Assembly: GCA_963713825.1 (NCBI GenBank)
Contig: CAVQNG010000025.1
Span: 96,001 to 160,000 of the forward strand
Direction: 5' to 3'
Origin: an uncultured Acidobacteriota bacterium
GTDB taxonomy: Bacteria; Acidobacteriota; Thermoanaerobaculia; Multivoradales; JAHEKO01
DNA length: 64,000 nt
The translations under genes and the position numbers were made by a program. Every line of letters begins with the position of its first letter. The stretch's first letter is position 1. This document shows, in pieces, positions 1-61,305 of this stretch. The notes beneath the pieces were generated by a model, which saw only the letters and a list, made by a program, of their open reading frames with translations, made no database searches and was not told the origin of the DNA.

Positions 1-1
1 C

Positions 2-286: not shown

Positions 287-290
287 TTCC

Positions 291-2667: not shown

Positions 2668-2738
2668 GAGCTGAACTCTTGGCCGGAGCGGCAATGAATC
2701 GCGACGATGAGGGACTGTGTTTGGGAGCGTAGTGAGAA

Positions 2739-3284
2739 ATGTCTACGACTCGATCGAGTGGCGGCGGGCAGTCTTGGGTAGTGGAGGTGCGAAGCATGAG
2801 GGTGGGAGCCGTCTTGTCGCTTCTGACGCTGCTCCTGGGCTTCAGCCTGGGTGGGATCTTCGGATTGTTCGAGGACTCTCTCAAAGCGGGGTTCGAGAAG
2901 ACGGCCCTGCAGACCTTGGCTTCCGAGCCCGACCCCGAGGCTGCCGCAGAGAGGCTCTCGGGGCGCTCGTGGAGCTGCATGAAACGATCCCATCTGCATG
3001 CCAACGGCCTGGGTACATCGGCCCTGGTGCTGATGCTTCTGACGACTGGAATGACCAGTGGAGCCGGCCTGAAACGCCTGGCAGGCTACTTGCTGGGCAT
3101 AGGTGCGCTTGGCTATTCCCTCTTCTGGATGCTGGCAGCCTTTCGAGCCCCGGCACTTGGCAGCACGGACCTGGCCAAGGAGTCGCTGAACTGGTTGGCA
3201 ATGCCCACTGCGGCGTGCTGCCTGCTCGGTCTTGTCCTGGTGCTGGTGATGGTGGTGAGAACGCTCTTCAGAGCCGCCGAGTGA
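2739..3284 (+). CDS. Hypothetical 4-TM membrane protein with HLH motif
   Basis: Four hydrophobic segments, RSHLHANG. Co-oriented after SCO. Confidence 0.7.
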   Translation: MSTTRSSGGGQSWVVEVRSMRVGAVLSLLTLLLGFSLGGIFGLFEDSLKAGFEKTALQTLASEPDPEAAAERLSGRSWSCMKRSHLHANGLGTSALVLMLLTTGMTSGAGLKRLAGYLLGIGALGYSLFWMLAAFRAPALGSTDLAKESLNWLAMPTAACCLLGLVLVLVMVVRTLFRAAE

Positions 3285-3315
3285 GGTGGCAGGCCGGCTT
3301 CAGCCCGGTAGGCCT

Positions 3316-5616
3316 CTAGTTGACATAGCCGAGGGCCTCCAATTGCTCCTCGATCTCGGCGTCCAGTTCCTCGATTTTTTCGGGGGCCGAGTCTCCCAGT
3401 AGCAACTCCTGGTTGAAGATCGCCTGACGCTGCACTGCCTGGCGCAGGTACAGCGCGCGCATTGGAAGCTCACCTGAAAGGTCCGTGTTCTCACCAGGAT
3501 CGCTGTCGATCTGGAAGAGACGGCTCTTACCTTTGAGGGGATCGAAGAGGATCTTCCACCCTCCTGTCTGGAGCATTTGTAGAGGTCGTGGCGGCTTCTG
3601 GTAGCTGTCCACTCGTCGCGTCGTCGCCCACAGTGGCCCGTGGCGGTCGGCCGACTCGAAGACGACAGGAAGGAGGCTGCGGCCCTGGTAGCCAGCTTGC
3701 TGGGTTGGAACGGCCAGACCATCGACCAGCGTGGGCAGGACGTCGACGAGACTGATCGGCTGGTCCACCTGTGCCATGAAACCGCGGGCCTCCCGAGGCC
3801 ACTTGATGACCAAGGGAACATGCAGGAACTCTCGGAAGAGCATTCGAGAGTGGAGGAACCGGTCGTGCTCCAGGAAGGCCTCACCATGATCGGACAGCAG
3901 AATCACCAGGGTGTCCTCGTAGCGATCCGCAGCGTCGAGTATCGATAGCAAGGCGCCGACCTGGGAATCGGCGAAAGCGACATTCTCGTCATATCGATCC
4001 CGAATGAACCGTCGGTCCTCCTCGGATAGCACCTCGAGATTTCGCCGCTGCGGGAACTCGCCGAGAAAGTTCGCCTGCGGAACAACAGTGCCCGTATACC
4101 AGGAGCTGTAGAGACCTCGGTAGGGCAGAGGTGGTGTATAGGGGGCGTGTGGCGGGATCAGATGTACGAATGCGAATGTCGGCTGCTTCTCAGAGAGTAA
4201 CTCCTGTCGGGATGGAAGAGCCCCATAGTCCCGGAACTCGGAGCGATAGAACTCCTGAAAGCCCCGTTTCAAGTCTCGCTGGTAGTCATAGAAAGGGTGT
4301 TGAGTCCAGAGCACGGTGCGGTATCCGACTCGAGACAGCAGCTCGGCCATGGTGTTGACTTTGGAAGGCAGAGGACTTCCCCAAGGCCCAACCCGCAGCG
4401 TATCGGGATAGAGCCCGGTAAAGACCGACGGAATCGATTGTCCGGTCCAGGATGAAGCGGCCATCGCCTCTTGGAAGACTGTGCCTTCTGCAGCGAGCCG
4501 TGCAGTGTTCGGAGTCGGACGCTCGCCACCGAAGGGGGAGAAGGCGTCGGCTCGTGCCGCGTCGAGTAGGACGATGAGTACATCCGGGCGACCCAATCGG
4601 CCCGACGATGGCGCCGGAAGGCTCCGAATCAGATCGATGTCAGCTGGTCGGGGCTGTCCAGGCTGGCCTTCCACGACAGCCCAGCTCCAAGAGACCACAG
4701 CGTTGCCGGGTCCTCCAACGCCGAGTCGCAACTGAACCGGCTGACCTTGCCACCGCCCGAGGTCGACGGCGAAGTCATGTTCGCCGGAAGAATCCGTGAC
4801 CCGTTCTTGCGCCAGATGGTGCTCTTCGAGCCCTTGATCCACGAGCTTCGCGTAGACCAGGACAGGTTCGACGTCTGCCCCTGGAGGACGAAGAACCTTG
4901 AAACGAGCCCTGAGGCGAGGCCGCTCGGGCAGCTCGGTAACGACTTCGAGCCAACCCGGAGATGGAATCTGGAAGGTGTCTCGACCCGATGCCTCCTCAG
5001 CGTCGTTGGCGAGCTGGATGCTGCTTGGTCGCTGCGGCCACACTCCTCGTTCGTTGGCAGCAACCAGGCGGAGGCGGCGCATTTTTGGTCTGAGCCTGTG
5101 GCGCAACTTCTGGAACTTCGGGGGGTGCGGAATCCGGAATTCCAATCGGTTGCGTCCTTCGCGGATCACACCGCTGGGAATCTCTACTCGATGTCGCTCC
5201 CACTGCCGGGTCAGGGGCAGATCGACGAGAGCTCGATCGTTCAAGGTCAATACCAAAGGAGTCTTCTTGAGTCGCCCTTTGCCGACGACCGAGACTTCGA
5301 TTTCGAATGCCACCGTGTCGCCGTCGGCTGAGAAGAAGAAGAGCCGAGCGGTCGGTACCTCCATCTCGAAGGCCGCTCGATCCGGGTCGTTGGCGTGCAC
5401 GTGGCGCCACCCGTAGCCCAGGTTGTCCAGGCCGGATTGTCGTGGGGCGGAGATCAGATCGGTAGAGAAATTACCCGATTGGTGCCAAATCTCGTCAGCG
5501 AAATCCAGCCAGACCCTGTCCGGTGTTGGTGGTCGGTCACGACAGCCGGCCAGGGTCAGCGCCAGGCAGACGAGGCAGATCCCAAAACGTGCTTGCCTTT
5601 GAGCGAGTGGAAACAT
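3316..5616 (-). CDS. Sulfatase-like hydrolase/transferase (alkaline phosphatase superfamily), probable lipoprotein
   Basis: Lipobox LAGC, LLDAARAD, SDHGE, C-terminal LEALGY. Confidence 0.85.
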   Translation of the reverse strand: MFPLAQRQARFGICLVCLALTLAGCRDRPPTPDRVWLDFADEIWHQSGNFSTDLISAPRQSGLDNLGYGWRHVHANDPDRAAFEMEVPTARLFFFSADGDTVAFEIEVSVVGKGRLKKTPLVLTLNDRALVDLPLTRQWERHRVEIPSGVIREGRNRLEFRIPHPPKFQKLRHRLRPKMRRLRLVAANERGVWPQRPSSIQLANDAEEASGRDTFQIPSPGWLEVVTELPERPRLRARFKVLRPPGADVEPVLVYAKLVDQGLEEHHLAQERVTDSSGEHDFAVDLGRWQGQPVQLRLGVGGPGNAVVSWSWAVVEGQPGQPRPADIDLIRSLPAPSSGRLGRPDVLIVLLDAARADAFSPFGGERPTPNTARLAAEGTVFQEAMAASSWTGQSIPSVFTGLYPDTLRVGPWGSPLPSKVNTMAELLSRVGYRTVLWTQHPFYDYQRDLKRGFQEFYRSEFRDYGALPSRQELLSEKQPTFAFVHLIPPHAPYTPPLPYRGLYSSWYTGTVVPQANFLGEFPQRRNLEVLSEEDRRFIRDRYDENVAFADSQVGALLSILDAADRYEDTLVILLSDHGEAFLEHDRFLHSRMLFREFLHVPLVIKWPREARGFMAQVDQPISLVDVLPTLVDGLAVPTQQAGYQGRSLLPVVFESADRHGPLWATTRRVDSYQKPPRPLQMLQTGGWKILFDPLKGKSRLFQIDSDPGENTDLSGELPMRALYLRQAVQRQAIFNQELLLGDSAPEKIEELDAEIEEQLEALGYVN

Positions 5617-5769
5617 GGCCTGAGTGGTCGCGTAGGCGAAAGAGGCGCCTGGTTGCGGCAGCCGAGCGGCGCGATGCTAGCACGCGTGCGAAGGTGTTTG
5701 GCGGGTGGTAGCCTCTGGCTCTCCGCCCGCTTCGCAGCGGCGACATGATTTCGATACGGGGACTGATTG

Positions 5770-6942
5770 ATGGCCGACTACTCACTGCGATTCAAGACAC
5801 TCGACACCAACCTGGTCCACGCGGGTCGACCCCATCCCTCCATCGAGGGCGCCGTGGTGACCCCGATTTTCCAATCGGCGAACTATGAGATGGGCGACGA
5901 AGCCACCTACGACGCTGTGCGCTACATTCGGCTGAGTAACTCGCCGAACCATCACGCCCTGCAGGCACGTCTGGCAGTCGCCGAATCAGCCGAGGCTGCA
6001 CTGGTGACAGCCAGTGGAATGGCAGCGATCTCGACTGCGATCTTGTCCCATGTGCAGTCCGGCGAGCACGTCTTGACCCAGCGCACGCTCTACGGCGGGA
6101 CCCAGAGCTTTCTCCATCAAGATGCCTCGAGACTCGGAATCTCTCACACCGCGATCGACATTGCAGACCCGGCAGGTGCTCGCTCTTGGGAACTCGCCCT
6201 GACTTCGCAGACTCGACTGATCTACGTAGAGTCCATATCGAATCCTTTGATGGAAGTCGGCGATCTGGAAGCGGTGGTGGCCTTTGCCCGGGAGCGCGGA
6301 TTGGTCACCGTAATCGACAACACGTTCGCCACGCCCGTCAACTTTCGACCGCTCGAGCTGGGGTTCGATCTGGTGGTCCACAGTGCGACCAAGTACTTGA
6401 ATGGTCACAGTGATCTGGTTGCAGGAGCCGTAATCGGTTCGATGACTGCAGTGGATCGGGTGCGCCACGTGTTGCTCCATCTGGGCGGCTCGCTCGACCC
6501 CAATACGTGTTTTCTTTTGGAGAGAGGTCTGAAGACCCTCGCTTTGCGGGTCCAAAGGCAAAATGAGACGGCTGCGAGGCTAGCGCGGTTTCTCGAACAA
6601 CAGCCGGCAGTGCGTCATGTGAACTACCCCGGTCTGGTGTCGAATCCAGGCCATCGCTACGCTGCCCGGCTCTTTTCGGGTTTCGGTGGGATGCTCTCGA
6701 TCTACCTCCAGGACGCCAGGCTGGCCGAGCGCTTCTTGGAGCGACTGACTCTGCCGATTCACGCTGCAAGCTTGGGAGGTGTCGAGTCCCTGGTAGTTCG
6801 CCCGGCGCGCAGCTCGCACCTCGGTCTCGAGCCGGCAGAGCGAGAGCGATTGGGCATCACCGATGATCTGATCCGGGTCTCGGTAGGTATCGAGGATGCC
6901 GAGGAGTTGATGGCTGACTTCGAGCAGGCGCTGGCCGATTGA
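5770..6942 (+). CDS. Cys/Met metabolism PLP-dependent enzyme (cystathionine gamma-synthase/lyase family)
   Basis: ASGMAAI, DNTFATP, HSATKYLNGHSD (PLP Lys), SLGGVESL, IRVSVGIED. Confidence 0.93.
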   Translation: MADYSLRFKTLDTNLVHAGRPHPSIEGAVVTPIFQSANYEMGDEATYDAVRYIRLSNSPNHHALQARLAVAESAEAALVTASGMAAISTAILSHVQSGEHVLTQRTLYGGTQSFLHQDASRLGISHTAIDIADPAGARSWELALTSQTRLIYVESISNPLMEVGDLEAVVAFARERGLVTVIDNTFATPVNFRPLELGFDLVVHSATKYLNGHSDLVAGAVIGSMTAVDRVRHVLLHLGGSLDPNTCFLLERGLKTLALRVQRQNETAARLARFLEQQPAVRHVNYPGLVSNPGHRYAARLFSGFGGMLSIYLQDARLAERFLERLTLPIHAASLGGVESLVVRPARSSHLGLEPAERERLGITDDLIRVSVGIEDAEELMADFEQALAD

Positions 6943-6981
6943 TGGGCACCGATCCTTCCGACCAAAACTGAGGACGAGCGA

Positions 6982-7554
6982 TTGACGAATCGATGTGATT
7001 GGGCCGGCAGCGATCCTCTGATGATCGAGTATCACGACCATGAGTGGGGTGTACCGGTACATGACGACAGGAAGCACTTCGAGTTCCTGGTCCTGGACGG
7101 TGCCCAAGCAGGGCTCTCCTGGTCCACGGTCCTGAAGAAGAGGGCTCGCTACAGAGAGGTCTTCGACGGATTTCGTCCGGAGATCGTGGCCACCTACGGC
7201 GAAGAGAGGGTCGAGGCGCTGCTGGCTGATCCGGGCATCATTCGCAACAAGCTCAAAGTCAATTCGGCGATTCGAAATGCGCGAGCGTTTCTGAAGATCC
7301 AGGAGGAGTTCGATGGCTTCGACGCCTACATCTGGCGGTTCGTGGGCGGTGAAACTCGAGTCAACAGCTGGGAGCGGATGGATCAGATCCCCGCCAGCAC
7401 CCCACAGTCCGATGCGATGAGCAAAGATCTCAAGCAGCGGGGGTTCAACTTCGTGGGGAGTACCATCTCCTACGCCTATATGCAGGCAGCCGGAATGGTG
7501 AACGATCACGTGGTGAGCTGCTTCAGATATACGGCGCTGACCTCAGAAGGCTGA
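6982..7554 (+). CDS. tag: DNA-3-methyladenine glycosylase I
   Basis: RCDWA, YHDHEWG, QAGLSW, GIIRNKLK, GMVNDH..C. Confidence 0.95.
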   Translation: MTNRCDWAGSDPLMIEYHDHEWGVPVHDDRKHFEFLVLDGAQAGLSWSTVLKKRARYREVFDGFRPEIVATYGEERVEALLADPGIIRNKLKVNSAIRNARAFLKIQEEFDGFDAYIWRFVGGETRVNSWERMDQIPASTPQSDAMSKDLKQRGFNFVGSTISYAYMQAAGMVNDHVVSCFRYTALTSEG

Positions 7555-7593
7555 AGGCCTGGACGAGATGAGGATCTCTCGAAGAGAAGAACC

Positions 7594-8220
7594 TTGACCA
7601 CCGCTGGCTGCATCTACGTCGATATCGACGATTGTCTCGCCCAGACGGCCCGGATGTTTGCAGAAGTCTTCGAGCAAGAGCACGGCAGAAGGGTCGATCT
7701 GGAGGAGATCGAGTCATTCGATCTGGGGGTCTCGCTGGGCCTGACGCCTGAGAGCCTCGACGACTTTATGAAATCTGTGCACCGCCCAGAAGTGCTGGCT
7801 GAGATCGAGCCCATGGAAGGGGCGATCGAAGCCTTGGCAGCATGGGTGGATCGGGGGTACGAGGTGGCGGTGGTGACGGGGCGACCACCAGCGACGGAGG
7901 CGGTCTCACGTCGGTGGCTGACCGAACAACGGGTGCCCCACCACTCCCTGACCTTTCTCGACAAGTACTCCTGGTCGGAAGACCTGTTCAGCGGCTCGCA
8001 GGCAATCAGCATGGATGAGCTTTCCCGCCGCTCCTTCAGCCTGGTCGTCGAGGATTCTGCCGAGGTGGCTCGGCGTCTCGCCGGCGTCCTGGAGGCGCCA
8101 GTGGCCCTGTTCGATCGGCCCTGGAATCGGAGCGCTCCGAAACCCGAAGACGAGTGGAAAGGACGGATATTTCGATGTCGGGATTGGCAGGACATCGGCG
8201 AGCGCTTCTCCCGGCCCTGA
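7594..8220 (+). CDS. HAD-superfamily 5'(3')-nucleotidase (NT5C-like)
   Basis: YVDIDD, VVTGR, VED, DRPWN. Confidence 0.75.
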   Translation: MTTAGCIYVDIDDCLAQTARMFAEVFEQEHGRRVDLEEIESFDLGVSLGLTPESLDDFMKSVHRPEVLAEIEPMEGAIEALAAWVDRGYEVAVVTGRPPATEAVSRRWLTEQRVPHHSLTFLDKYSWSEDLFSGSQAISMDELSRRSFSLVVEDSAEVARRLAGVLEAPVALFDRPWNRSAPKPEDEWKGRIFRCRDWQDIGERFSRP

Positions 8221-8876
8221 GCATCGGCTCGGTGGTCCTGTTGGCCGCGTCGATGGCACCCGGAGCCAGCTGGGCGGCCGATTCGCCAGAAACTGTCTCC
8301 TTTTCCACGGCGGACGGAGGGGAGATCCATGCTCACCTATACGGCGGGGGAGGGCACGCAGTCGTGCTCGCCCACGGCAAGGTGTTTGACAAGGAGAGCT
8401 GGCAGCCACTGGCGAGCTACTTGAGCGGCAGGGGACTCCAGGTCCTGGCCCTGGACTTCAGGGGTTACGGTGACTCGACTCCGGGTGAAGAGGAGGGGGC
8501 ACTCTGGCTGGACGTGGTGGCGGCGGCGGGTTTTCTTCGCCACCGCGGTGCCCAACGAATCTCGGCACTGGGCGCGAGCATGGGAGGTGGCGCCGTGGCT
8601 CGAGCGAGCGTCGAAGCTCCCACGGGCACCTTCTTCAAAGTGATTCTTCTGGCCGCGGCGCCAATCGCCGCGGCCGATCGAATGAAGGCGAACTCCTTCT
8701 TGTTTGTCGTCAGTCGCGAGGAGCCCCTGTTGCCGCGGGTGAGAGAACAGTTCGAGCAGGCTCCGGAGCCCAAGCGCCTCGAGATCCTCGAAAGCAGTGC
8801 CCACGCCCAGCATGTCTTCCGCACAGACCAGGCCGACGTCCTGACACAACTGATCGTCGACATGTTGGCTGATTGA
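8175..8876 (+). CDS. Secreted alpha/beta hydrolase
   Basis: Signal-like N-terminus, LAHG, DFRGYGDS, GASMGG. Start uncertain. Confidence 0.8.
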   Translation: MSGLAGHRRALLPALSIGSVVLLAASMAPGASWAADSPETVSFSTADGGEIHAHLYGGGGHAVVLAHGKVFDKESWQPLASYLSGRGLQVLALDFRGYGDSTPGEEEGALWLDVVAAAGFLRHRGAQRISALGASMGGGAVARASVEAPTGTFFKVILLAAAPIAAADRMKANSFLFVVSREEPLLPRVREQFEQAPEPKRLEILESSAHAQHVFRTDQADVLTQLIVDMLAD

Positions 8877-9149
8877 TTCACCGCACCTTGAGGTAGAACT
8901 CCTGGGTAAGAGTCCAGGATCTCTTGGAGGCCCGTCCGGGGTAGTCCGCAGGTGCTGGGCCCATGCCCATCTGGCCGTTGTCGAGGGGTCCGACGCGGGG
9001 CCCCCAGGGGGCTATCCTCCCTATCCACAGCAACCAACCCCCTGGAGGTCCCCACGCCGAACCCTGGATGTCCCTGGATCACGGGTCCCTCTAGGCCCTT
9101 ACGCCTCTGAGCCCTCATTGCTCCACTGCCTTACTGCCACAGAGGTGCC

Positions 9150-9356
9150 AGAGGTTCGTCCGGGTGGTTCGACAGGGGGTGCCGAGTCGAGCGCGGCGCA
9201 AGGACCACGAACGAGCACGACAGATGAGGCGCGATGACGAGACAAGGTGGCGACCCCCTGAATGTAGGGGAGGGGCTTGCCCCCTCCCGCGGGAGCCCGC
9301 AAGGGGCTCCTACATAGCCGACACCGTCCCGCTGCGAACCACCCGGACGAACCTCT
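9150..9356. mobile_element. MITE-like or structured cassette M bounded by perfect 22-bp inverted repeats
   Basis: AGAGGTTCGTCCGGGTGGTTCG (9150-9171) and CGAACCACCCGGACGAACCTCT (9335-9356). Homolog at 42108-42269. Mobility is inferred. Confidence 0.6.
9262..9315. repeat. Inverted GTAG-type REP doublet (REPIN-like)
   Basis: Plus strand GTAG-GGGAGGGG-CTTGC-CCCCTCCC; minus strand GTAG-GAGCCC-CTTGC-GGGCTC. Outer ATGTAGG/CCTACAT inverted. Confidence 0.75.
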
Positions 9357-9638
9357 ACGAGAAGAGGGTCATCTGCCCCGGGGTCCAGAGCCTTGGTGCC
9401 CCAAGCCCTCAAAGACCGGCTGACACGAAGTGCTGCCGGCTCAACCCCCAAGCCCCAGAGACCGGCCGGGAGGTACGACCGGGCGCCTCAACCCTGTCTG
9501 CTTGCAGGCAGTGAATGCATTGTCATACACTCCGGCCACCAAAACTCGATCCAGTCCGTTGGGCAGAACCGACGGTTGAGGGCCGAAGGTCGGTGGATGG
9601 GTGTCGTCCGTCGCGGTCAGTCAGACAAGGAGTCGCTG

Positions 9639-11405
9639 ATGAGTGCTAGCGAAGCGCAGGCTGTCGGGGTGGAAGAACCCGGAGCCGAGCACCACGAGCT
9701 GCCGTTCTGGCAGCGCTACATCTTCTCGCAGGACCACAAGGTCATCGGGCTCCAGTACGGGTTCACCGCTCTTTGCTTCTTGCTGTTTGGCTTCAGCCTG
9801 ATGCTGATGATGCGTTGGCAGCTGGCCTATCCAGGTCGGCCTGTGCCGATCATCGGCGGTCTACTCGGCAGCGCCAATGCTCCCGGTGGCATCATGCTGC
9901 CCGAGTTCTACAACCAGCTGGGAGCGATGCACGGCACTGTCATGGTGTTCCTGGCGGTCGTTCCCCTGCTGGTGGGTGCCTACGGCAACTACCTCGTCCC
10001 CCTTCAGATTGGTGCTCCCGACATGGCGTTTCCGAAGCTGAACATGGCCAGCTACTGGTGCTACCTGCCAGGTGGCCTCATCATGCTGGCCAGCTTCTTC
10101 GTACCAGGTGGAGCCGCCAATTCGGGTTGGACCTCGTATCCGCCGCTTTCCAATATCGCCACCTCGGGTCAAACATGGTGGTTGGTGGGGATGATCTTCC
10201 TGATCACCTCGTCGCTGCTGGGCTCGGTGAATTTCATCGTCACCATCTTCCAGTTGCGCGCCGAAGGACTGGACTTCATGCGGCTGCCGATGTTCGTCTG
10301 GTCGCAGCTGGTGACGTCATTTCTGTTGCTGCTGGCCTTTCCACCCTTGGAAGCGGCGGGCATTCTCCAACTGATGGATCGGGTGGCGGGTACCAGCTTC
10401 TTCATGCCCAGCGGTCTGGTCGTCAGTGGTGAGGTCCTGGAGATAGCCGGCGGTGGCAACCCATTGCTGTGGCAGCATCTCTTCTGGTTCCTGGCGCATC
10501 CAGAGGTCTACGTTCTGATTCTGCCGGCAATGGGAATCGTCGCGGAGGTGATAGCCAACAACACCCGCAAACCGCTTTGGGGCTACAAGGCGATGGTCTA
10601 CTCAGCCGTCTTCCTGGGCTTCATGTCGTTCATCGTCTGGGCGCATCACATGTTCCTGACCGGCATGGGTACGGCGATCAGTTCGTTCTTCCAGACCACC
10701 ACCATGATCATCTCCGTTCCGTCGGTGGTCATTCTTTCAGCGCTATTGATCTCCCTCTGGGGCGGTTCCATACGGTTCAACACCCCAATGCTCTTTGCGT
10801 TGGCTTTCCTGCCGATGTTCGGTGTCGGCGGGCTCACCGGCCTCCCTCTCGGGCTGGCTCCGAGCGATATCCACCTGCATGACACCTACTACGTCATTGG
10901 GCATTTTCACTACGTCGTGGCCCCCGGCACGATCTTCGCGATCTTCGCTGGAATCTACTACTGGTTCCCGAAGATCACCGGCAGAATGATGAGTGAGCGC
11001 CTGGGCAAGCTCCACTTCTGGCCATCCCTGATATTCATGAATGGGATCTTCATGCCGATGTTCGTCCAGGGACTGGCCGGAGTGTCCAGGAGACTGTACG
11101 ACGGCGGAGCCCAGTATTCCCACGCCCAGGGCGTGCTGCACTGGAATCTCTTCATGTCGGTGTCGGCGTTCGGTCTTCTCATCGCCCAGATCCCCTTCAT
11201 CATCAACCTCTTCGTGAGCATCAAGAAGGGCGTCAAGGTCGGTTCAAATCCCTGGGACGCCACGACGCTGGAATGGGTCGCCGCGCCTTCGCCGCCTGTC
11301 GCTCATGGCAACTTCCCGGAGCTGCCGGTCGTTACCCGCGGACCCTACGAATACAGCCCACCAGAATCGGACGAGGGCTATCTGCCCCAGAACGCCGTGG
11401 CTTGA
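9639..11405 (+). CDS. ctaD: Cytochrome c oxidase subunit I (heme-copper oxidase, A family)
   Basis: RBS AAGGAG before ATG 9639. MHG, GAPDMAFP, HPEVY, WAHH, HDTYYVIGHFH, SRR. Confidence 0.96.
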   Translation: MSASEAQAVGVEEPGAEHHELPFWQRYIFSQDHKVIGLQYGFTALCFLLFGFSLMLMMRWQLAYPGRPVPIIGGLLGSANAPGGIMLPEFYNQLGAMHGTVMVFLAVVPLLVGAYGNYLVPLQIGAPDMAFPKLNMASYWCYLPGGLIMLASFFVPGGAANSGWTSYPPLSNIATSGQTWWLVGMIFLITSSLLGSVNFIVTIFQLRAEGLDFMRLPMFVWSQLVTSFLLLLAFPPLEAAGILQLMDRVAGTSFFMPSGLVVSGEVLEIAGGGNPLLWQHLFWFLAHPEVYVLILPAMGIVAEVIANNTRKPLWGYKAMVYSAVFLGFMSFIVWAHHMFLTGMGTAISSFFQTTTMIISVPSVVILSALLISLWGGSIRFNTPMLFALAFLPMFGVGGLTGLPLGLAPSDIHLHDTYYVIGHFHYVVAPGTIFAIFAGIYYWFPKITGRMMSERLGKLHFWPSLIFMNGIFMPMFVQGLAGVSRRLYDGGAQYSHAQGVLHWNLFMSVSAFGLLIAQIPFIINLFVSIKKGVKVGSNPWDATTLEWVAAPSPPVAHGNFPELPVVTRGPYEYSPPESDEGYLPQNAVA

Positions 11406-11423
11406 GGAGAACAGAGGAAAGTC

Positions 11424-12014
11424 ATGCAGATCCCCTACACCGTCGAGCAGCGCCCTGATACAGGCCTTTACAACGCCAAGCTGGGCGTGTGGCTCTTCCT
11501 GGCCTCTGAAGTCATGTTGTTTGGGGCTTTGTTCTCGGCCCTCATTCTCCTGCGAACGGGTGCAACCACCTGGCCACATGGCTATGAAGTGCTGAATGTC
11601 CCGTTGGCGACGATGAACACCATGGTGCTCATCACCTCGTCCGTCTCGATGGTCATGTCATGGGCGGCGCTGCGCCTCGGCGACTTCGGCCGATACCGCA
11701 AGTGGATGGGCCTGACTTTTGTGCTCGGACTCGTGTTCATGGTCATCAAGAGCATCGAGTACGCCGCCAAGTTCGAGCACCATCTGTATCCGTCTCACGA
11801 CAATTTCATGGCCACCTATTTCACCCTGACTGGTCTGCATGGTCTGCATGTTCTGGGCGGCATGATCGTTATTGGCTATCTGCTCGGGCCGGGAAGCAAG
11901 ATGTGGAAGTCGGAGCCCGAGCGGTTTACCAATCGAGTCGAGGTGGTCGGGCTGTACTGGCATTTCGTGGATCTGGTCTGGATCTTTCTTTTCCCCACCC
12001 TTTACCTGCTGTAG
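11424..12014 (+). CDS. ctaE: Cytochrome c oxidase subunit III
   Basis: WLFLASEVMLF, TGLHGLHV, YWHFVDLVW. Confidence 0.95.
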   Translation: MQIPYTVEQRPDTGLYNAKLGVWLFLASEVMLFGALFSALILLRTGATTWPHGYEVLNVPLATMNTMVLITSSVSMVMSWAALRLGDFGRYRKWMGLTFVLGLVFMVIKSIEYAAKFEHHLYPSHDNFMATYFTLTGLHGLHVLGGMIVIGYLLGPGSKMWKSEPERFTNRVEVVGLYWHFVDLVWIFLFPTLYLL

Positions 12015-12033
12015 TGGGTAGGAGGAGGCGTCG

Positions 12034-12333
12034 ATGAGTGGACACAGTGTCGAGGAGATCAGAAAGGAAACCAGGGTCTACGTTCTGGTCTTCGTAGCCC
12101 TTGCAGTGTTGACGCTCGTCACGGTGGGCGTCAGCTACCTGCACCTGAGCTTCGGCGCCGCGGTGGCCCTGGCTCTGTTCATTGCTTCGATCAAGGGCAC
12201 CCTCGTGGCCGCCTTCTTCATGCATCTGATCTCGGAGAGGAAGCTAGTCGTCGCGGTGCTGGTTCTGACCGCGATCTTCTTTGTCGCTTTGATGCTTCTG
12301 CCCCTGGGTGGCTACGTCGACAGGCTGCGCTGA
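12034..12333 (+). CDS. Cytochrome c oxidase subunit IV (prokaryotic)
   Basis: 3 TM, IASIKGTLVAAFFMHL. RBS GGAGG. Confidence 0.88.
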   Translation: MSGHSVEEIRKETRVYVLVFVALAVLTLVTVGVSYLHLSFGAAVALALFIASIKGTLVAAFFMHLISERKLVVAVLVLTAIFFVALMLLPLGGYVDRLR

Positions 12334-12335
12334 TC

Positions 12336-12539
12336 ATGTTGTCTCTGCGGAGCTTTCACGTTGTCTTCATCGTGGCCTCGATTCTCCTGTCTCTGGGGGT
12401 CGGAGCTTGGGGCGCACAGCAGTACCTGCAGCGATCGAGCACTCAGGGCTTGGCAATGGCGGTGATCTTCTTCCTGACGGCGATACTGCTGGCGCTGTAT
12501 GCCCTGCGGTACTTCGGCAAACTGAGGAGGCTCGAGTAG
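12336..12539 (+). CDS. Small 2-TM membrane protein in the oxidase operon
   Basis: SLRSFHVVFI, two TMs, 2-3 nt spacing from its neighbours. Confidence 0.7.
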   Translation: MLSLRSFHVVFIVASILLSLGVGAWGAQQYLQRSSTQGLAMAVIFFLTAILLALYALRYFGKLRRLE

Positions 12540-12542
12540 GAA

Positions 12543-12851
12543 ATGCGGCGCACCGATTCGACCTCGACTCGCAAGAACAAGGGATCAGCCGCGGCAAGAT
12601 GGATCGCGGTACCCATGGCTCTACTCGCGGCGCTGGCCTTGTCGCAGTCCGCCGCCGCCTGTGCTGTTTGCTATGGCGCCGAAGATTCGGCCATGACAGC
12701 TGGAGTGAATAACGCGATTCTCCTGCTACTGGGAGTGGTGGCCTTGGTCCAAGGTAGCTTTGCGGCGCTGTTCCTGTCTCTTCGTCAGCGTGCCCGTCGA
12801 GCACGGAGCCAGGCCAAGGGACAGCGACCGTCGATTGGAGGGACCCTCTAG
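12543..12851 (+). CDS. Small exported/membrane protein with CxxC motif
   Basis: Signal peptide ending AAA, then CAVCYG, then a TM helix. Stop abuts the coxB ATG. Confidence 0.7.
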   Translation: MRRTDSTSTRKNKGSAAARWIAVPMALLAALALSQSAAACAVCYGAEDSAMTAGVNNAILLLLGVVALVQGSFAALFLSLRQRARRARSQAKGQRPSIGGTL

Positions 12852-13652
12852 ATGCACTCGATACTGAGCCGATGGCTTCCCGAGAACGCCGCCGCACACG
12901 GTGCGGAGATCGACCGCATCATGGTCATGGTGCATTGGCTGATGCTCTTACTCTTCGTCGGGTGGAGTCTCTACTTCATCTACGTCCTGTTTCGGTTTCG
13001 GGCCGGTAGAAACCCCAAGGCGAGCTATACCGGGGTCAAGAGCCACTTCTCTTCGTACTTGGAAGGAGGCGTCGTCCTGGCGGAGGCCATCCTTCTGATC
13101 GGCTTCGCCATTCCGGCCTGGGCACGATGGGTAACCCCCCATGCGCCGGAAGCAGATGCCCTGCAGGTCAGGGTTGTTGCTGAGCAATTTGCCTGGAACG
13201 TTCACTACCCGGGTCCCGATGGCGTCTTTGGGAGTGCCGATATCAATCTCATCGATGCGGCCAACCCCTTGGGTTTGGATCGGCAGGATCCCTTTGCCAA
13301 GGACGACGTGACGACGATCAATCAACTCCATTTGCCTGTCAATCGAGCCGTCACGGTTCTGCTGTCCAGCAAGGATGTGATTCACAGTTTCTTCCTCCCG
13401 GTCATGCGGGTCAAACAGGACACGATCCCGGGAATGGAGATACCGGTTCGCTTCGTACCTGTGGCCACGACGCCAGAGGAGGCACAGCTGCCTGGCTGCG
13501 CGGCCAACGTTTCCTGTTGGGAGATCGCTTGTGCTCAGTTGTGTGGTCTCGGCCACTACCGGATGCGAGGTTTCTTCCAGGTGCACTCACAGGCCGACTT
13601 CGACCTTTGGATGGATCAGCAGGTCAAGAAGCTGGCACCGGCCACGAGCTGA
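12852..13652 (+). CDS. ctaC: Cytochrome c oxidase subunit II (CuA)
   Basis: 2 TM, QFAW, DVIHSF, CAQLCGLGHYRM. No c-type heme domain. Confidence 0.94.
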   Translation: MHSILSRWLPENAAAHGAEIDRIMVMVHWLMLLLFVGWSLYFIYVLFRFRAGRNPKASYTGVKSHFSSYLEGGVVLAEAILLIGFAIPAWARWVTPHAPEADALQVRVVAEQFAWNVHYPGPDGVFGSADINLIDAANPLGLDRQDPFAKDDVTTINQLHLPVNRAVTVLLSSKDVIHSFFLPVMRVKQDTIPGMEIPVRFVPVATTPEEAQLPGCAANVSCWEIACAQLCGLGHYRMRGFFQVHSQADFDLWMDQQVKKLAPATS

Positions 13653-13727
13653 TCGGCTTTTCTGCTGACGGCGACCTTCTCGCAGCTGCTGCAGAGCGGG
13701 AGACCTGGGGGCAGGTATGATCGGCGC

Positions 13728-14150
13728 ATGCCTGATCTATCGACGCTGCCCACTGTCAATGCGTTGCTGAATGGTCTGAGCGGCACCTTTCTGGTGGCTG
13801 GCTACTGGCTGATCCGGCAACGCAAGATCGGAGCTCACAAGGCCAGTATGCTGGCTGCCTTCGCCTGCTCCATCCTGTTTCTCGTCAGCTACCTCTTCTA
13901 CCATTCGCAGGTGGGTTCCGTTCGATTCCAGGGAACGGGAATGCTGAGGACGTTCTACCTGGGGGTCCTGTTGACCCATTCGGTGCTGGCGGCTGCCGTA
14001 CCGATCCTGGCGGTGATTACGCTGACTCGGGCGCTACGGGGTCGATTCGACAAGCACGCGGAGATTGCTCGCTGGACGTTGCCGATCTGGCTCTATGTGT
14101 CCGTCACCGGCGTCCTCGTGTACTGGATGCTCTACCACCTGTCGATCTGA
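13728..14150 (+). CDS. DUF420 family membrane protein
   Basis: LPTVNALLN, FLVSYL.YH, THSVLA, IWLYVSVTG. Confidence 0.9.
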   Translation: MPDLSTLPTVNALLNGLSGTFLVAGYWLIRQRKIGAHKASMLAAFACSILFLVSYLFYHSQVGSVRFQGTGMLRTFYLGVLLTHSVLAAAVPILAVITLTRALRGRFDKHAEIARWTLPIWLYVSVTGVLVYWMLYHLSI

Positions 14151-14157
14151 CGAGATC

Positions 14158-15327: not shown

Positions 15328-15366
15328 GGCGTCGAAGCGAGGGGACCGGCCCTATTCGGTCGATGC

Positions 15367-16107: not shown

Positions 16108-16192
16108 TGGATCTAGTCGGGTTCCGTGCTGTGGGCTGGCCGGGCTTGCAGGGCTCGTCAGTATATTCCAAAGGAGTTGCGTGGCGATCCGT

Positions 16193-19917: not shown

Positions 19918-19935
19918 TCCGGAGCTAGTCTGGAA

Positions 19936-41926: not shown

Positions 41927-42310
41927 CAGGGTTGAGGCAGCCGATCGGACCAGGGATCTCCCTCGTCTGCGGCCTCACCCGACCATGCCCCTCCGACGAG
42001 GGAGACCCATGGCCCGATCTACCACCGTCGAGACATATCAAGAATCGGTCTGCTGACTCTCCCCTTACGCCCCAAGCCCCTACACCCCTAGACCTCTCCG
42101 ATGCCAAAGGTTCGTTCGGGTGGTTCGACAGGGGGCGCCGAGTCGAGCGCGGCGCAAGGACCTTGATAGAGCACAGGAGACGGGGCGCGATGACGAGACG
42201 AGGCGGCGGCCAGTCCGTCATAGTCTGAGTAGCCGACGCCGTCCCCCGGCGGACCACCCGAAGGAACCTCCAACAGAAGAGGGTCAGCTGCCGGGGGCCC
42301 AGGCCCCGGG
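41927..42310. repeat. Composite modular intergenic repeat, copy B (hairpin L, ladder, cassette M, tail)
   Basis: 41941-42030 matches 56392-56481 at 87/90. 42117-42162 matches 9161-9206. Imperfect IRs at 42108-42127 and 42250-42269. Confidence 0.88.
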
Positions 42311-56378: not shown

Positions 56379-56762
56379 GGGGTTGAGAGGGCCGATCGGA
56401 CCAGGGGTCTCCCTCGTCTACGGCCTCACCCGACCATGCCCCTCCGACGAGGGAGACCCCTGGCCCGATCTACCACCGTCGCGACAGATGAAGAATCCGC
56501 TTGCAGATTCGCCCCTTCGCCCTTAAGCCCCTATTGCCTTCAATGGTGCCGGAGGTTCGTTGGGGAGGTCCGACCTGCCAACCGAACCAAGGTGTCAACT
56601 AGGTCCTGAGGTCGAACTGTCACCTATGTCCTGATACAGAACACCTAGTGGCCTCCCGCGGGAGGGGGCCCCACTGCCTCAAAGGCCGCTCGGCGAAGTC
56701 GCCGAGCGCCTCAACCCCAAGCCCTCGAAGACCGGCCGAAGGTACGCCAGCCGCCTCGACCC
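56379..56762. repeat. Composite modular intergenic repeat, copy C (hairpin L, ladder, collapsed M, IS-end remnant, array H)
   Basis: Starts GGGGTTGAG and ends CTCGACCC (inverted). Shares modules with copies A, B and D. Confidence 0.88.
56593..56643. mobile_element. Isolated IS481-like terminal remnant
   Basis: Two 17-mers TGTCAACTAGGTCCTGA and TGTCACCTATGTCCTGA at 25-nt spacing, ending ACA. Family assignment from recalled end pattern. Confidence 0.5.
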
Positions 56763-56782
56763 TCAGGGTGGGTGGGCGGGCG

Positions 56783-58573
56783 TCAGGGGTGGAAGGGCCA
56801 GAAGACGGGAATCAGGACGGAGGCCAGTACCCAGAAGATCAGAGTCAGTGGAGCGCCGGCCTTGAGATAGTCGGTGAATCGATAGTTCCCTGGGCTGAAG
56901 ACCATGGCGTTGGTCTGGTAGCCCATCGGGGTCATGAAGCTGGCCGAAGCCGCATACGCGACGGCCATGAGAAATGGCTTCACATCCACTTGCAGTGCGG
57001 CGGCAGCGCTGAAGGAGATAGGAACCATGAGCACGGCGGTGGCATTGTTCGAGAAGACCGAGGTCAGCAGCGACGTTGCCAGGTAGAGCACAGACAACAT
57101 GACAATGGCGCCGTAGGACTCGCCGACCCAACCCAATCCGTCTCCGATCATCGTCGCCAAGCCGGTGTTCTCCATGGCGATGCCCAGCGGCAGAATCGCC
57201 GCCAGCAGGAAGATCACCGTCCAATCGATGGCCCGATAGGCCTGTTGGATCGTAATTCGACGAGTGATCAGTAGAACGATGGCTCCCAGGATGGCGGCCT
57301 TGAGAATCGGCATCAATCCGGTCGCCGCCAGGAGCACCACTGCCACGATCGTCAGGATGCTGATCCACCATCGAGAAGCGAGCTGGATCTTCAAGTCGCG
57401 CTCGCCCAGAGGTACGAAATCATCCATTTCGTAGAGCGCCTCGACCCTCGACCGCGGACCGAAGATGAGCAGCGTGTCCCACGGTACCAACGGAATGCGA
57501 GCCAGCTTGTCTCGAATCAGCTCACTCGTCCGCCGCAGAGCCAGAACAAAGCAGCCGAAACGGCGGCGAAAATCGATCTCTTTCAGGGTCGAGCCGATCA
57601 ACTGCGAGGAGGGATCCAGTTGCACCTCGGCGAGGATCGTGTGCTCGTCGCTCAGGTCGGTGTCGCTGAGCTTGATGTCGGTGAGCAAGAGGAGGCCGAA
57701 GGTCTCCTTGAGTGTCAGGATGTTCTCCATGGGTCCGCGGACCAGGAGGATGTCGTCGGCTCGGAGCGGGGTGGCTCGCAGGTTCGTCGAGATCTTCTCC
57801 TGACCGCGGATGATTTCGATGACGTTGATCTGATACCGCTCGCTGATCTGTTCTCGCACTACGGTGCTGCCTTCGAGCTTCGAGCCCGGCGGCAGCCTGA
57901 GCTCGGTCAGGTAGCCGGCGAGGTGGTACTTGCGCGTCAGGCTCGACAGCACGACCCTCGAGGGCAGCAGTCGCATCGGACCCAGAATGTTGTAGACGGT
58001 TCCTACCGCAACGAAGACGATGCCGAGCATGAAGAACTCGAAGACCCCGAAATCACCACGGCCCCGTTCGGCGGACAGGGAGCTGACCAGTAGGTTGGTG
58101 GACGTTCCCAGAAGGGTGCAGGTGCCCCCGATGATGGCCATGTAGGACAGCGGTAGCAGGATCTTCGATGGGCTGAATCGGTAGTGTCGTGCCAGGTGGA
58201 TCGCCACCGGCATGAACACTCCAACCGCGGCGGTGTTATTGATGAAGGCGGAGATGAAGCCGACCAGTAGTAGTAGCAGGATCGAGGCCCCGATCGCCGA
58301 CTTGCCGGTGCGCTCAGCGATCCTGTAGCCGAGTTTTGTTATCAGGCCGCTGTGCACGAGCCCCGAACTCAGGATGAACATCATCATGACGGTGATGACT
58401 GCCGGGTTGGAGAAACCGGAGACCGCTTCCTCCGGTGTGACGAGATTGAACAGCAAGAGCAGACCGAGGCAGGTCAGGGCAATGACGTCCATGCTCATCC
58501 ATTCCCGCACGAATGCGAAGATGGTGAACAGGATGATCCCCAGTAGAAGGGCGATTTCCAGATTAAAAGTCAT
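56783..58573 (-). CDS. SLC13/DASS family permease with TrkA-C domains
   Basis: AFINNTA, GTSTNL, two cytoplasmic RCK-C-like repeats, SNNAT, TPMGYQTN. Confidence 0.92.
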   Translation of the reverse strand: MTFNLEIALLLGIILFTIFAFVREWMSMDVIALTCLGLLLLFNLVTPEEAVSGFSNPAVITVMMMFILSSGLVHSGLITKLGYRIAERTGKSAIGASILLLLLVGFISAFINNTAAVGVFMPVAIHLARHYRFSPSKILLPLSYMAIIGGTCTLLGTSTNLLVSSLSAERGRGDFGVFEFFMLGIVFVAVGTVYNILGPMRLLPSRVVLSSLTRKYHLAGYLTELRLPPGSKLEGSTVVREQISERYQINVIEIIRGQEKISTNLRATPLRADDILLVRGPMENILTLKETFGLLLLTDIKLSDTDLSDEHTILAEVQLDPSSQLIGSTLKEIDFRRRFGCFVLALRRTSELIRDKLARIPLVPWDTLLIFGPRSRVEALYEMDDFVPLGERDLKIQLASRWWISILTIVAVVLLAATGLMPILKAAILGAIVLLITRRITIQQAYRAIDWTVIFLLAAILPLGIAMENTGLATMIGDGLGWVGESYGAIVMLSVLYLATSLLTSVFSNNATAVLMVPISFSAAAALQVDVKPFLMAVAYAASASFMTPMGYQTNAMVFSPGNYRFTDYLKAGAPLTLIFWVLASVLIPVFWPFHP

Positions 58574-61156: not shown

Positions 61157-61305
61157 GGCGCCCGGCTCACCGCCGGGCGTTCTTTGAGGGCTTGGGGTTG
61201 AGTCGGCTGTCGCTTGCTCCAGCCGATCTTTGGGGCAGTGGGCCCACCACCCATTCCCCTAGGCCCTTACGCCCGTAAGCCCCTTTTGCCTTCAATGGTG
61301 CCGGA
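61151..61305. repeat. Composite modular intergenic repeat, copy D (inverted array H + ladder)
   Basis: Minus-strand linker CTCAACCCCAAGCCCTCAAAGA between two perfect stems. 61276-61305 matches 56524-56553 at 29/30. Confidence 0.85.

Follow-up and report, generated by a model that had tools for sequence, protein, structure and literature searches.

A mosaic family of hairpin-rich intergenic repeats in a clade of uncultured Thermoanaerobaculia

Four loci (A–D) in a 64,000-nucleotide stretch of DNA from an uncultured Acidobacteriota bacterium, hereafter the window, are copies of a mosaic, hairpin-rich repeat family, not described before, that fills the gaps after genes. The host group of this family is a clade of uncultured Thermoanaerobaculia (Acidobacteriota). 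We consider it probable, at roughly two chances in three, that the loci are lineage-specific mosaic repeats, small, non-coding and of the same kind as REP, BIME and BOX, that are probably transcribed at the 3' ends of genes.

Modules of the window loci and extent of the family

Comparing loci A–D by blastn, we found common modules well above chance (E down to 6e-43; Table 1), as a first-pass annotation of the window had claimed, and alignments of L, M, ladder and H agree. The L hairpins of B and C are 94% identical over the full intervals in Table 1 (E 6e-43), cassette M of A matches that of B in two blocks (9146-9252 with 42102-42208, 87%; 9315-9377 with 42230-42292, 84%), the ladder of C (56518-56553) matches that of D (61270-61305) at 94%, and the H unit is present in A, C and D. 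The 20-mer CCCCAAGCCCTCRAAGAMCG occurs three times in the window versus 0.03 expected in a shuffle-controlled count, and the right end of A, GCCTCAACCCTG, is indeed the exact reverse complement of the left end of B. Open reading frames that overlap the elements (9131-9451 and 41910-42257 on the - strand, 9164-9514 and 42120-42614 on the + strand) contain no Pfam domain.

Several details of that annotation required correction. The hairpin of A that had been assigned to L belongs to a non-homologous family, AL, which occupies the same slot as L of B and C; the middle of C, which had been assigned to M, is unique, and at most about 21 nt of it (56552-56572, four mismatches) resemble the M left arm. 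The H array of D is inverted relative to its ladder. The boundaries also move: for A, a decayed M arm and tail, in inverted orientation, place the start at about 8927, and C extends to about 56790 through a G-tract cap.

Table 1. Modules of loci A–D, with positions in the window
Locus	Module	Positions	Strand	Basis
A	Decayed M right arm and tail, inverted	8927..8965	+	module comparison with L025
A	AL hairpin; covarying outer stem, nearly invariant loop of ~26 nt	8978..9070	+	
A	C-rich ladder, 8-nt period	9085..9145	+	
A	Cassette M (long subtype), enclosed by 22-bp arms that form a perfect inverted repeat (9150-9171, 9335-9356); twin-hairpin insert 9262-9315	9146..9372	+	
A	Tail joining M to H	9373..9398	+	
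A	H array, two hairpin units; end = GCCTCAACCCTG	9399..9496	+	
B	Remnant of inverted H outer end (CAGGGTTGAGGC)	41927..41938	+	
B	L hairpin; arms 41943-41972, 41990-42019	41940..42046	+	blastn, nhmmer
B	C-rich ladder	42047..42101	+	
B	Cassette M, short subtype (arms 42107-42127, 42250-42270), and tail	42102..42297	+	
C	Remnant of inverted H outer end (GGGGTTGAGAGG)	56379..56390	+	
C	L hairpin; arms 56394-56418, 56446-56470, complementarity 96%	56391..56497	+	
C	C-rich ladder	56498..56553	+	
C	Unique middle, not M	56554..56659	+	nhmmer: one match in everything sampled, itself
C	H array, two units	56660..56763	+	
C	G-tract cap (runs of at least 3 G), just beyond H outer end	56764..56790	+	
D	H array, two units, inverted; outer end at the upstream gene's stop codon	61149..61252	-	
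D	C-rich ladder, no M following	61253..61305	+	

An exact-pattern genome scan returned 58 loci, 39 of which come from five Thermoanaerobaculia/Acidobacteriota MAGs; the 19 loci of other taxa (Nonomuraea, Actinoplanes, cyanobacteria and others) hold the 20-mer alone, with no module by blastn or nhmmer, and were rejected as chance matches. Copies were gathered with iterated nhmmer module profiles, and the profile matches are confined to the 39 clade loci and the window (H 102, M 26, AL 24, ladder 16, L 9); within the sampled DNA, the family is restricted to one clade. All 102 H matches, in about 0.6 Mb, are intergenic. In total, the repeats occupy 70 distinct intergenic regions (72 in the list, two of them duplicated through overlapping loci). 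Outside the regions ascertained by the scan we counted 26 regions in 529 kb (4.9 per 100 kb), the window has four in 64 kb, and the overall estimate of about 5–6 regions per 100 kb agrees with the high density that had been predicted.

One MAG shows synteny with the window, at about 84% identity. That the loci are artefacts or chance, either low-complexity GC-rich hairpins or metagenome misassembly, deserves almost no credence: spurious hairpins are plentiful in GC-rich genomes and the 19 out-of-clade loci prove that short chance matches occur, but alignments of 100–230 nt at 80–95% identity connect six independent assemblies, the repeats have orthologous placement beside the same genes, and shuffle controls back the signal. 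Rfam 15 gave no match to the elements at gathering score; sub-threshold matches (animal and plant miRNA hairpin models; DUF3800-IV at 28.9 bits, with 60.7 needed) were discarded as generic GC-rich hairpins. With no account of such repeats found for the lineage in a literature search, the annotated status as an uncatalogued, multicopy modular family was upheld. Phage collections held no match for locus C, and the sole match of locus A in plasmid collections was 52 nt of the twin-hairpin insert, in Vescimonas fastidiosa.

The H unit (~48 nt) consists of C-rich 8-mers (CCCCAAGC CCTCAAAG), a 7–9 bp hairpin that is free in sequence and maintained in pairing, and CCTCAACCC; in an alignment of 53 H arrays, the hairpin feet are flanked by AAAGR and CCTCAAC. 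What had been described as element ends, GGGTTGAG and CTCAACCC, are the outer ends of H units. H arrays have one to three units and are usually solo or arranged as inverted pairs, which set their outer ends against flanking gene ends and can enclose an AL or L hairpin, a C-rich ladder and cassette M. These modules and the tail are optional, lying between or beside H arrays, as is the G-tract cap (12 of 72 outer ends). Cassette M is an inverted-repeat module of 185–230 nt, with or without the twin-hairpin insert, which starts GTAG and finishes CTAC; AL measures about 85 nt.

Where modules co-occur, the order is mostly H(-), AL or L, ladder, M, tail, H(+), and in most full copies the ladder directly adjoins the M left arm in the same orientation. 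The order is broken in several regions (L050, L051 and L008:2315), so that its description as fixed holds for most co-occurrences and not for all. An H(-) start and H(+) finish were found in 13 of the 70 regions, including L042 (9567-10048), the mirrored ends of which have complementarity extending into the flanks. Conversely, 29 of the 70 start and finish with same-orientation H arrays, mostly solo arrays, and the form met most often is a solo H array lacking both M and AL. These ends, and module sets that differ at orthologous sites, are incompatible with the single 400–500 nt element with fixed ends that had been proposed. Given the solo modules, the order breaks and the differing orthologous sets, the contrary scenario set out in the same annotation, of independent modules with no conserved order, is half true: modules do occur alone, but order is mostly kept when they co-occur.

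Genomic position, pairing and transcript-end signals

All 70 distinct regions are intergenic (35 convergent, 15 tandem, 10 divergent and 10 at contig ends), whereas gaps overall comprise 94 convergent, 283 tandem and 84 divergent. Convergent gaps are thus enriched (35 of 60 regions versus 94 of 461 gaps; odds ratio 8, p about 2e-12), the counts being based on gene calls by our own simple codon-score caller, and in the anchored sample about a third of gaps between convergent genes hold repeats. The outer end of H points at the 3' end of a gene in 55 cases and at a 5' end in 21, mostly 0–50 nt from the stop, and three H arrays come after tRNA-Ser 3' ends. Within the window, the genes on either side of B, C and D converge, as annotated, and A is flanked by two + strand genes. 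The orientation of M relative to neighbouring genes was also considered as a signal and found uninformative, because convergent neighbours make any orientation look downstream of a co-oriented gene; tandem gaps split 3 versus 1.

Folding is more favourable than in shuffled sequences, with z = -6.1 and -4.0 for M, -2.9 for the whole of A and -3.4 for the whole of C. In alignments of 15–53 rows, in which counts are inflated by shared descent, 97.4% of cells in the H hairpins are paired and both sides have changed in 11 of 14 pairs, AL has double changes in 5 of 10 pairs with a nearly invariant loop, and M has 95.1% of cells paired with double changes in 4 of 40 pairs. None of 500 shuffles was as good as H, and the covariation that the first-pass annotation had asked to see is present in the H and AL hairpins. 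On the strand read as ladder, M and H(+), G:U cells outnumber A:C cells in M (63 versus 5; 16 versus 5 for wobble columns) and in H (42 versus 7), and several M pairs form stepwise CG/UG/UA series. In the L hairpin, the strand that carries G:U in M shows A:C mismatches, and the strand evidence is thus non-uniform. The conserved AL loops, the conserved M blocks and the 95% identity of AL compared with about 84% for genes point to a function beyond that of a passive repeat.

It is possible, if unlikely, that M (185–230 nt) and AL (about 85 nt) are functional RNA genes or cis-acting 3'-UTR domains under selection, that H arrays and ladders are terminators, Rho-loading or processing signals, and that the copies represent a duplicated useful regulatory cassette, not selfish spread. 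The wobble bias and stepwise series in M would fit this account, as would the covarying stems and nearly invariant loop of AL, the AL of locus A and its L025 ortholog being 95% identical, compared with about 84% for the flanking genes. So would the uneven conservation of M (arms and core blocks 0.88–0.95, variable segment 0.76, tail 0.58), the old, star-like M copies with no recent bursts, and a C-rich, G-poor composition on the same strand (unpaired H segments C 50%, G 9%; ladder C 42%, G 19%) that might suit Rho loading. However, a promoter consensus scan of A, B and D found no site, either in or ahead of A or B, Rfam has no match, and just 4 of 40 M pairs have double changes; moreover, most of the wobble in M reflects fixed left-arm versus right-arm differences that the copies share by descent, and therefore represents few independent events. 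Also contrary to it are the loss, inversion and replacement of M at orthologous sites of 95% identical genomes, the different M subtype at the site orthologous to B, and the prevalence of solo H arrays.

Applying the hairpin-plus-U-tract criterion for intrinsic terminators, we found no site in A, B or D; the 8 nt beyond each H hairpin, read from outside, contain 2.7 T on average. Positions 1–20000 of the window have 10 terminator-like sites versus 13.1 expected, and a terminator scan therefore says little in this genome.

Turnover and candidate movers

Modules at fixed sites undergo rapid gain, loss, inversion and replacement. Sampled loci L001 and L026 are colinear and 95–96% identical, and their element content differs at two of three sites; L019 and L054 have both H arrays in common at 95%, with a 1.6 kb gene between them in one versus cassette M in the other. 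At the site of A, M is present and H(-) absent, whereas L025, at the orthologous site, carries the inverted arm and tail of M in intact form, with two H(-) units ahead of them, both missing from the window. The L008 site beside the SDR gene, orthologous to B, also has M, but of the long subtype. Whole genes were noted as slot content in two comparisons (L019 versus L054, L007 versus L038).

From this turnover we infer that the family is mobile. The M tree is star-like and mixed across genomes, with no grouping by genome or orthologous site, and therefore gives no donor and no date. M copies have a mean pairwise identity of 75% (maximum 84%), and as no genome contains a near-identical pair, the turnover could be due to recombination alone.

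In agreement with the first-pass annotation, the called window genes encode no transposase domain. Y1_Tnp/RAYT (PF01797) was absent from 112 neighbour proteins (E<=1e-8), 246 further locus proteins (E<=1e-7, 1e-8) and the window genes, in a search of about 0.55 Mb from five fragmented MAGs that omitted L026, L041 and non-neighbour genes of <90 or >520 aa. As for genes flanked by the ends, for which HUH/RAYT and IS110 had been named, the single transposase in this sample is an IS110 in L022 (410-1375), which ends ~30 nt from a ladder and H(+) array; the repeat is possibly its target, not something that the IS mobilises. Target-site duplications, envisaged at the element ends, were not visible by eye at nine complete inverted-pair composites.

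It is very improbable, in our judgement, that the modules are classical MITEs, i.e., nested, cut-down derivatives of DDE-type insertion sequences moved via the 21–22 bp M inverted repeats or the inverted H ends. The terminal inverted repeats of M (21–22 nt, perfect over 22 bp in A), its size of 185–230 nt, its multiple and truncated copies, and the twin hairpin, an insertion-like extra piece inside some copies, do resemble such elements. However, the 41 M-arm matches all sit inside repeat regions, either as two arms of one M or alone, and bound neither an element-sized segment nor any segment over 1 kb; no DDE transposase occurs among the 358 locus proteins, a partial sample, or the window genes; and the composite ends lack visible target duplications. 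Furthermore, conservation passes both arms into the ladder and tail, and the arms stay paired through compensatory and wobble changes, which is unnecessary for a transposase-binding repeat. Because genes sit between inverted H arrays, an integron-like arrangement with H as attC-type sites was considered as well, and was rejected: no Pfam search detected an integrase domain, and most arrays flank no gene.

Under the preferred reading, of REP/BIME/BOX-like mosaic repeats, a trans-acting enzyme acting on the hairpin and flanking motif would spread and reshuffle the family (an HUH/Y1-type enzyme is the obvious candidate; none was found), and/or reshuffling would take place by recombination among the many inverted and direct copies. 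Copies would persist where they are harmless or useful, would probably be transcribed as the 3' ends of the genes next to them, and may make transcripts more stable or terminate them. The choice offered earlier between a mobile element and an RNA family is probably a false one: the loci are probably a REP/BIME-type mosaic repeat, the pieces of which bear strand-biased RNA-like pairing. More speculatively, and with a distinctly low chance of being right, the family may propagate itself as a "gene-end cassette": inverted H arrays would be portable two-way transcript-end signals and fixed slot borders, slot content (M, AL, whole genes) would be exchanged, M and AL would be new strand-selected structured RNA classes, and movement would depend on some enzyme that is not a GTAG-dependent RAYT.

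If REP/BIME/BOX-like repeats are indeed what these loci represent, little-known soil and sediment Acidobacteria give a sizeable intergenic share to one mosaic repeat system. The repeats break short-read assemblies, since contigs end inside them (MAG contigs break within repeats, and L052 begins and finishes in M arms), and automatic scans can mistake them for RNA genes or mobile elements. They would be a ready strain-typing marker for the clade, would mark places of gene gain and loss between close relatives, and would provide a test case for REP-like repeats arising outside proteobacteria without the GTAG tag, with M and AL as candidate structured RNAs at gene 3' ends.

Comparison with known repeat systems

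We compared the family with the REP, BIME and REPIN doublets of enterobacteria and pseudomonads (PMC3333891, PMC3733652, PMC2817692, PMC3116915). The H hairpins are short, imperfect, highly repeated extragenic palindromes, as REPs are; inverted doublets able to form one long hairpin, as in REPINs, occur in 13 of 70 regions (e.g., L042); and the 70 region maps have the alternating units and recurrent linkers of BIMEs, with make-up varying by locus and strain. A further hallmark of BIMEs is that they are bound by IHF, gyrase or Pol I. Like REP and BIME elements, the units are short, GC-rich and present in high copy; they are single, paired in inverse orientation or clustered, with conserved linker motifs; their number and make-up vary by locus and strain; they are intergenic, mostly behind genes and between convergent genes; and their stems contain G:T pairs.

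There are also differences. TnpA-REP needs a GTAG (or CGTC) tetranucleotide at one hairpin foot (PMC3333891, PMC3733652), whereas the H hairpin foot in the 53 aligned arrays lacks the conserved GTAG/CGTC of the two large REP superfamilies; among the modules, GTAG stands only at the start of the optional twin-hairpin insert of M. Conservation here falls on the run of C-rich 8-mers next to the hairpin and not on the stem, the "linkers" are much larger and structured (AL, L, and M of 185–230 nt), and a RAYT was not found in the sample. Insertion sequences land on REP repeats, and those that target them include IS110-family members (PMC1525189, PMC3733652); the L022 gene beside its ladder and H(+) array is similar, although it is a single case and the only copy in the sample.

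BOX of Streptococcus pneumoniae, boxA-boxB(n)-boxC, and SPRITE were compared as well (PMC3049150). BOX and RUP are reported there to have inverted terminal repeats and to duplicate their target; such duplication was not seen here at composite ends. Unlike BOX, the present family is unrelated in sequence, has a GC-rich host and comprises more module types, and unlike BOX and SPRITE its H hairpins fail the canonical terminator test. Like BOX, however, it is a composite of separately modelled modules with a variable number of internal units and stem-loops predicted upon transcription, and it shares with BOX and SPRITE a significant excess between convergent genes and a terminator-like member near 3' ends.

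Modules of the repeat loci and their extents

The four repeat loci of the window (A to D; see table) belong to a mosaic repeat family that is real, dense and specific to one lineage; it is assembled from arrays of a hairpin unit of about 48 nt (H), the long hairpins AL and L, a C-rich ladder with an 8-nt period, an inverted-repeat cassette (M) and a tail. That these loci share modules, as the first-pass annotation held, was borne out by pairwise blastn inside the window: the L hairpins of B and C are 94% identical over 107 nt (E 6e-43), the M cassettes of A and B are 87% identical over 107 nt and 84% over 63 nt, the ladders of C and D are 94% identical over 36 nt, and the H-unit core is present in A, C and, inverted, D. 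The 20-letter H motif occurs three times in the window versus 0.03 times in shuffled sequences, and the right end of A is indeed the exact reverse complement of the left end of B. Folding is more stable than in shuffled controls, with z-scores of -6.1 and -4.0 for M, -2.9 for whole A and -3.4 for whole C; the inverted repeat that closes M of locus A is perfect over its 22 bp.

Other parts of that annotation required revision. The long hairpin of A, which had been equated with L of B and C, is a member of another family (AL); the middle piece of C, which had been read as M, is unique, and its nhmmer profile retrieves only the seed itself. GGGTTGAG and CTCAACCC, regarded as the ends of the element, are both outer ends of H units. 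The orientation of D was corrected, its H array being inverted, and the start of A and the end of C were redrawn (see table).

Iterated nhmmer searches seeded from the window produced 102 matches to H, 26 to M, 24 to AL, 16 to the ladder and 9 to L. Each H unit consists of C-rich 8-mers, a variable hairpin and CCTCAACCC, and arrays contain one to three units. Designating array orientation H(+) or H(-) relative to the strand that reads ladder, M, tail, H(+), we determined that the commonest region type (29 of 70 regions, mostly solo arrays) starts and finishes with H arrays of the same orientation, while 13 of 70 start with H(-) and finish with H(+). The module order proposed initially stands as the usual one where extra modules are present (H(-), AL or L, ladder, M, tail, H(+)); as a fixed order it does not hold, exceptions being found in the scanned loci L050, L051 and L008 (at 2315). 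In most full copies, the ladder directly adjoins the left arm of M in the same orientation.

M occurs in a short subtype of about 185 nt and a long one of about 230 nt that contains a twin-hairpin insert; each of the nine inserts found lies within M. The insert in the window is 86.5% identical over 52 nt to a sequence on the Vescimonas fastidiosa megaplasmid, three places of which carry this repeat. The latter looks like a GTAG-type REP doublet, and the match might be due to convergence or to a small hairpin element that is widespread.

An optional G-tract cap, with three or four tracts of the GGGTGGGTGGGCGGG type, lies immediately outside 12 of 72 H outer ends (17%), compared with a frequency of 0.11% in random 45-nt windows. 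Such a cap could make a G-quadruplex on one strand or a C-rich stretch on the other.

Coordinates of the features discussed. Handles such as L019 denote individual loci from MAGs or plasmid collections, each with its own coordinates
Feature	Location	Remarks
Locus A	window, near 8927 to 9496	intergenic, alpha/beta hydrolase gene (+) / COX1 (+)
Locus B	window 41927-42297	intergenic, RskA-type anti-sigma gene (+) / short-chain dehydrogenase gene (-)
Locus C	window, 56379 to about 56790	intergenic, uridine kinase (+) / CitMHS transporter (-)
Locus D	window 61149-61305	intergenic, hydrolase (+) / beta-lactamase-fold gene (-)
AL hairpin	window 8978-9070 and 15 other copies	CCTCC on one strand of the loop
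Twin-hairpin insert	window 9262-9315	GTAG at start, CTAC at finish
Match to twin-hairpin insert	L059 (NZ_AP023416.1 288926-288977)	Vescimonas fastidiosa megaplasmid
L hairpin, locus B	window 41943-42019	two A:C mismatches on + strand
L hairpin, locus C	window 56394-56470	one A:C mismatch on + strand
G-tract caps	window 56764-56790; L054 4819-4845; L042	in L042 on both sides
Terminator-like hairpin	window 63458-63542 (-)	after gene 63528-63998
H arrays directly 3' of tRNA-Ser genes	L023 9853-9944; L037 4023-4114; L034 16434-16781	
Segment between H arrays	L019 8386-10000	1.6 kb, FG-GAP_2 gene
Segment between H arrays	L054 4279-4723	445 nt, with M
Segment between H(-) and H(+)	L007 5957-6649	DUF309 gene
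Segment at the same place	L038 1502-1778	AL
IS110-family transposase gene	L022 410-1375 (+)	
H array beside transposase gene	L022 1413-1507	H(+)
Contig edges in M arms or H arrays	L052 1-29 and 14434-14454; ends of L003, L021, L043, L056	

Distribution and genomic position

A genome scan with the H motif as query, taking 10-kb flanks from a collection in which the window itself is absent, returned 58 loci. Five MAGs with a Thermoanaerobaculia or Acidobacteriota label contribute 39 of these (JBATEX01 18, CAMYLC01 8, JAUVRX01 6, JARFQS01 4, JAUWSP01 3); the remaining 19, from unrelated taxa, contain the 20-mer alone with no other module and were rejected as members. The closest relative of the window is the JBATEX01 MAG. 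One scanned locus, L025, aligns colinearly to window 1-16644 (about 84% identity) and covers the site of locus A, and another, L008, covers that of locus B, adjoining the dehydrogenase gene.

After removal of two duplicates from overlapping loci, the 72 listed regions left 70 distinct ones. Leaving out the scan-ascertained regions, density is 4.9 per 100 kb (26 regions in 529 kb), the window having four in 64 kb; by extrapolation, a genome of a few megabases would contain a few hundred. Some MAG contigs begin or end inside M arms or H arrays (see table), so the repeats evidently break short-read assemblies and MAG-derived copy numbers are therefore underestimates.

According to gene calls made with our own simple codon-score caller, on which the classification of regions is based, every region is intergenic, and 35 of 60 classifiable regions lie in convergent-gene gaps versus 94 of 461 gaps overall (odds ratio 8, p ~2e-12). 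Counting tRNA genes as neighbours changes the class of three regions, one of which becomes convergent (36/60). In 55 cases an H outer end faces a gene 3' end and in 21 a 5' end, mostly within 50 nt of the stop. Three of the nine tRNA genes found in the loci are tRNA-Ser genes directly followed by an H array; the window, which has a G+C content of 61.6% and in Pfam scans encodes cytochrome oxidase, IleRS, phosphoglucomutase, uridine kinase and other ordinary chromosomal genes, contains no tRNA gene.

Pairing, covariation and strand

Covariation of the H hairpin is strong: both partners have changed in 11 of 14 pairs and 97.4% of cells are paired, while none of 500 shuffles reached the observed covariation and slid controls paired at 19–46%. 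In AL, the loop is nearly invariant and the outer stems covary, with double changes in 5 of 10 pairs; the CCTCC of the loop implies a GGAGG Shine-Dalgarno-like run on the opposite strand. M pairs at 95.1%, yet has double changes in just 4 of 40 pairs (2/500 shuffles). On the strand reading ladder, M, tail, H(+), there are 63 G:U versus 5 A:C cells in M, many of these wobbles being fixed differences between left and right arms inherited by all copies, and 42 versus 7 in H, two columns supplying 26 of the 42. This is the pattern expected for pairing within one strand, be it RNA or single-stranded DNA; the bias of the L hairpin, from few copies, is opposite to that of M, its A:C mismatches on the + strand being G:U pairs on the - strand. 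The possibility that M and AL are primarily RNA genes, to be weighed with the one-strand pattern and covarying AL stems as well as with the scarce double changes in M, seems to us rather unlikely.

Read from outside, the H hairpin is followed by a weak T-rich stretch (mean 2.7 T per 8 nt) that falls short in a terminator scan. Read from inside, its unpaired parts are 50% C and 9% G, a composition that might resemble a Rho-loading site. A minus-strand stretch near the end of the window weakly matched SorX in Rfam (26 bits versus 46.6 needed), an identity we rejected: the stretch is a GC hairpin with five T behind it and resembles a canonical intrinsic terminator downstream of the adjacent gene. 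The host thus does possess ordinary terminators.

Turnover, putative mobilisation and comparison with known repeats

Although L001 (from JBATEX01) and L026 (from CAMYLC01) are colinear over 20 kb and 95–96% identical, just one element site out of three is conserved; at the other two the modules differ, with both flanks and the outer H(+) array in common. In L019 and L054, the H(-) and H(+) arrays match at 95%, and the content between them differs: L019 has a 1.6-kb segment with an FG-GAP gene of lower G+C (56% versus 64% in the left flank), and L054 has 445 nt with M. Two whole genes, this FG-GAP gene and the DUF309 gene of L007, thus sit between inverted H arrays in one MAG and are missing in a relative of about 95% identity, where repeat modules occupy the space; the repeats mark places of gene gain or loss. 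The window and L025 also differ at the locus A site: M is present and the left H arrays are absent in the window, and the reverse holds in L025. In the relative, the copy nearest to M of locus B is a non-orthologous one and not that of the orthologous site. The tree of M copies is star-shaped, its terminal branches measure about 0.12 and copies from the same genome do not group together; pairwise identity averages 75%. Together, these site differences and the divergence of M indicate that module content turns over faster than point substitution; neither the M tree nor the M pairwise identities suggest that identical copies arose in a recent burst.

Pfam scans covered 112 repeat-adjoining genes, 246 further locus genes of 90–520 aa and the window genes, setting aside shorter or longer non-neighbour genes and the near-duplicate or overlapping L026 and L041. 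Among the 358 locus proteins and the window genes scanned, the only transposase (DEDD_Tnp_IS110 plus Transposase_20) is encoded by an IS110-family gene that is present once in the sample, in L022, and ends about 30 nt short of a ladder and H(+) array. Neither the locus proteins nor the window genes yielded a Y1/HUH, DDE or integrase domain, no segments longer than 1 kb bounded by M arms were found, and no target duplication was visible at nine complete composites. For mobilisation and function, we infer that an HUH-type or other trans-acting enzyme, together with recombination between copies, would be the likeliest means of spread and reshuffling, and that transcription into gene 3' ends would be the likeliest reason for persistence.

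Full-text literature yielded no description of such repeats in Thermoanaerobaculia or Acidobacteria, subscription journals and ISfinder lying outside this search. As described in excerpts of PMC3733652, PMC3333891 and PMC3049150, REP/BIME, REPIN and pneumococcal BOX and SPRITE elements resemble the present family in their high copy number, in hairpin units that are single, inverted or clustered with linkers, in a make-up that differs per locus and strain, in a preference for convergent gaps, in G:T pairs and in the use of the repeats as targets by insertion sequences. However, TnpA-REP needs a GTAG tag, according to the portion of PMC3333891 that concerns it, and since H units lack this tag and no RAYT was seen in the sample, there is no support for placing the repeats within REP/RAYT. 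The family works like REP/BIME/BOX elements, with a unit design of its own and unusually large structured inserts.
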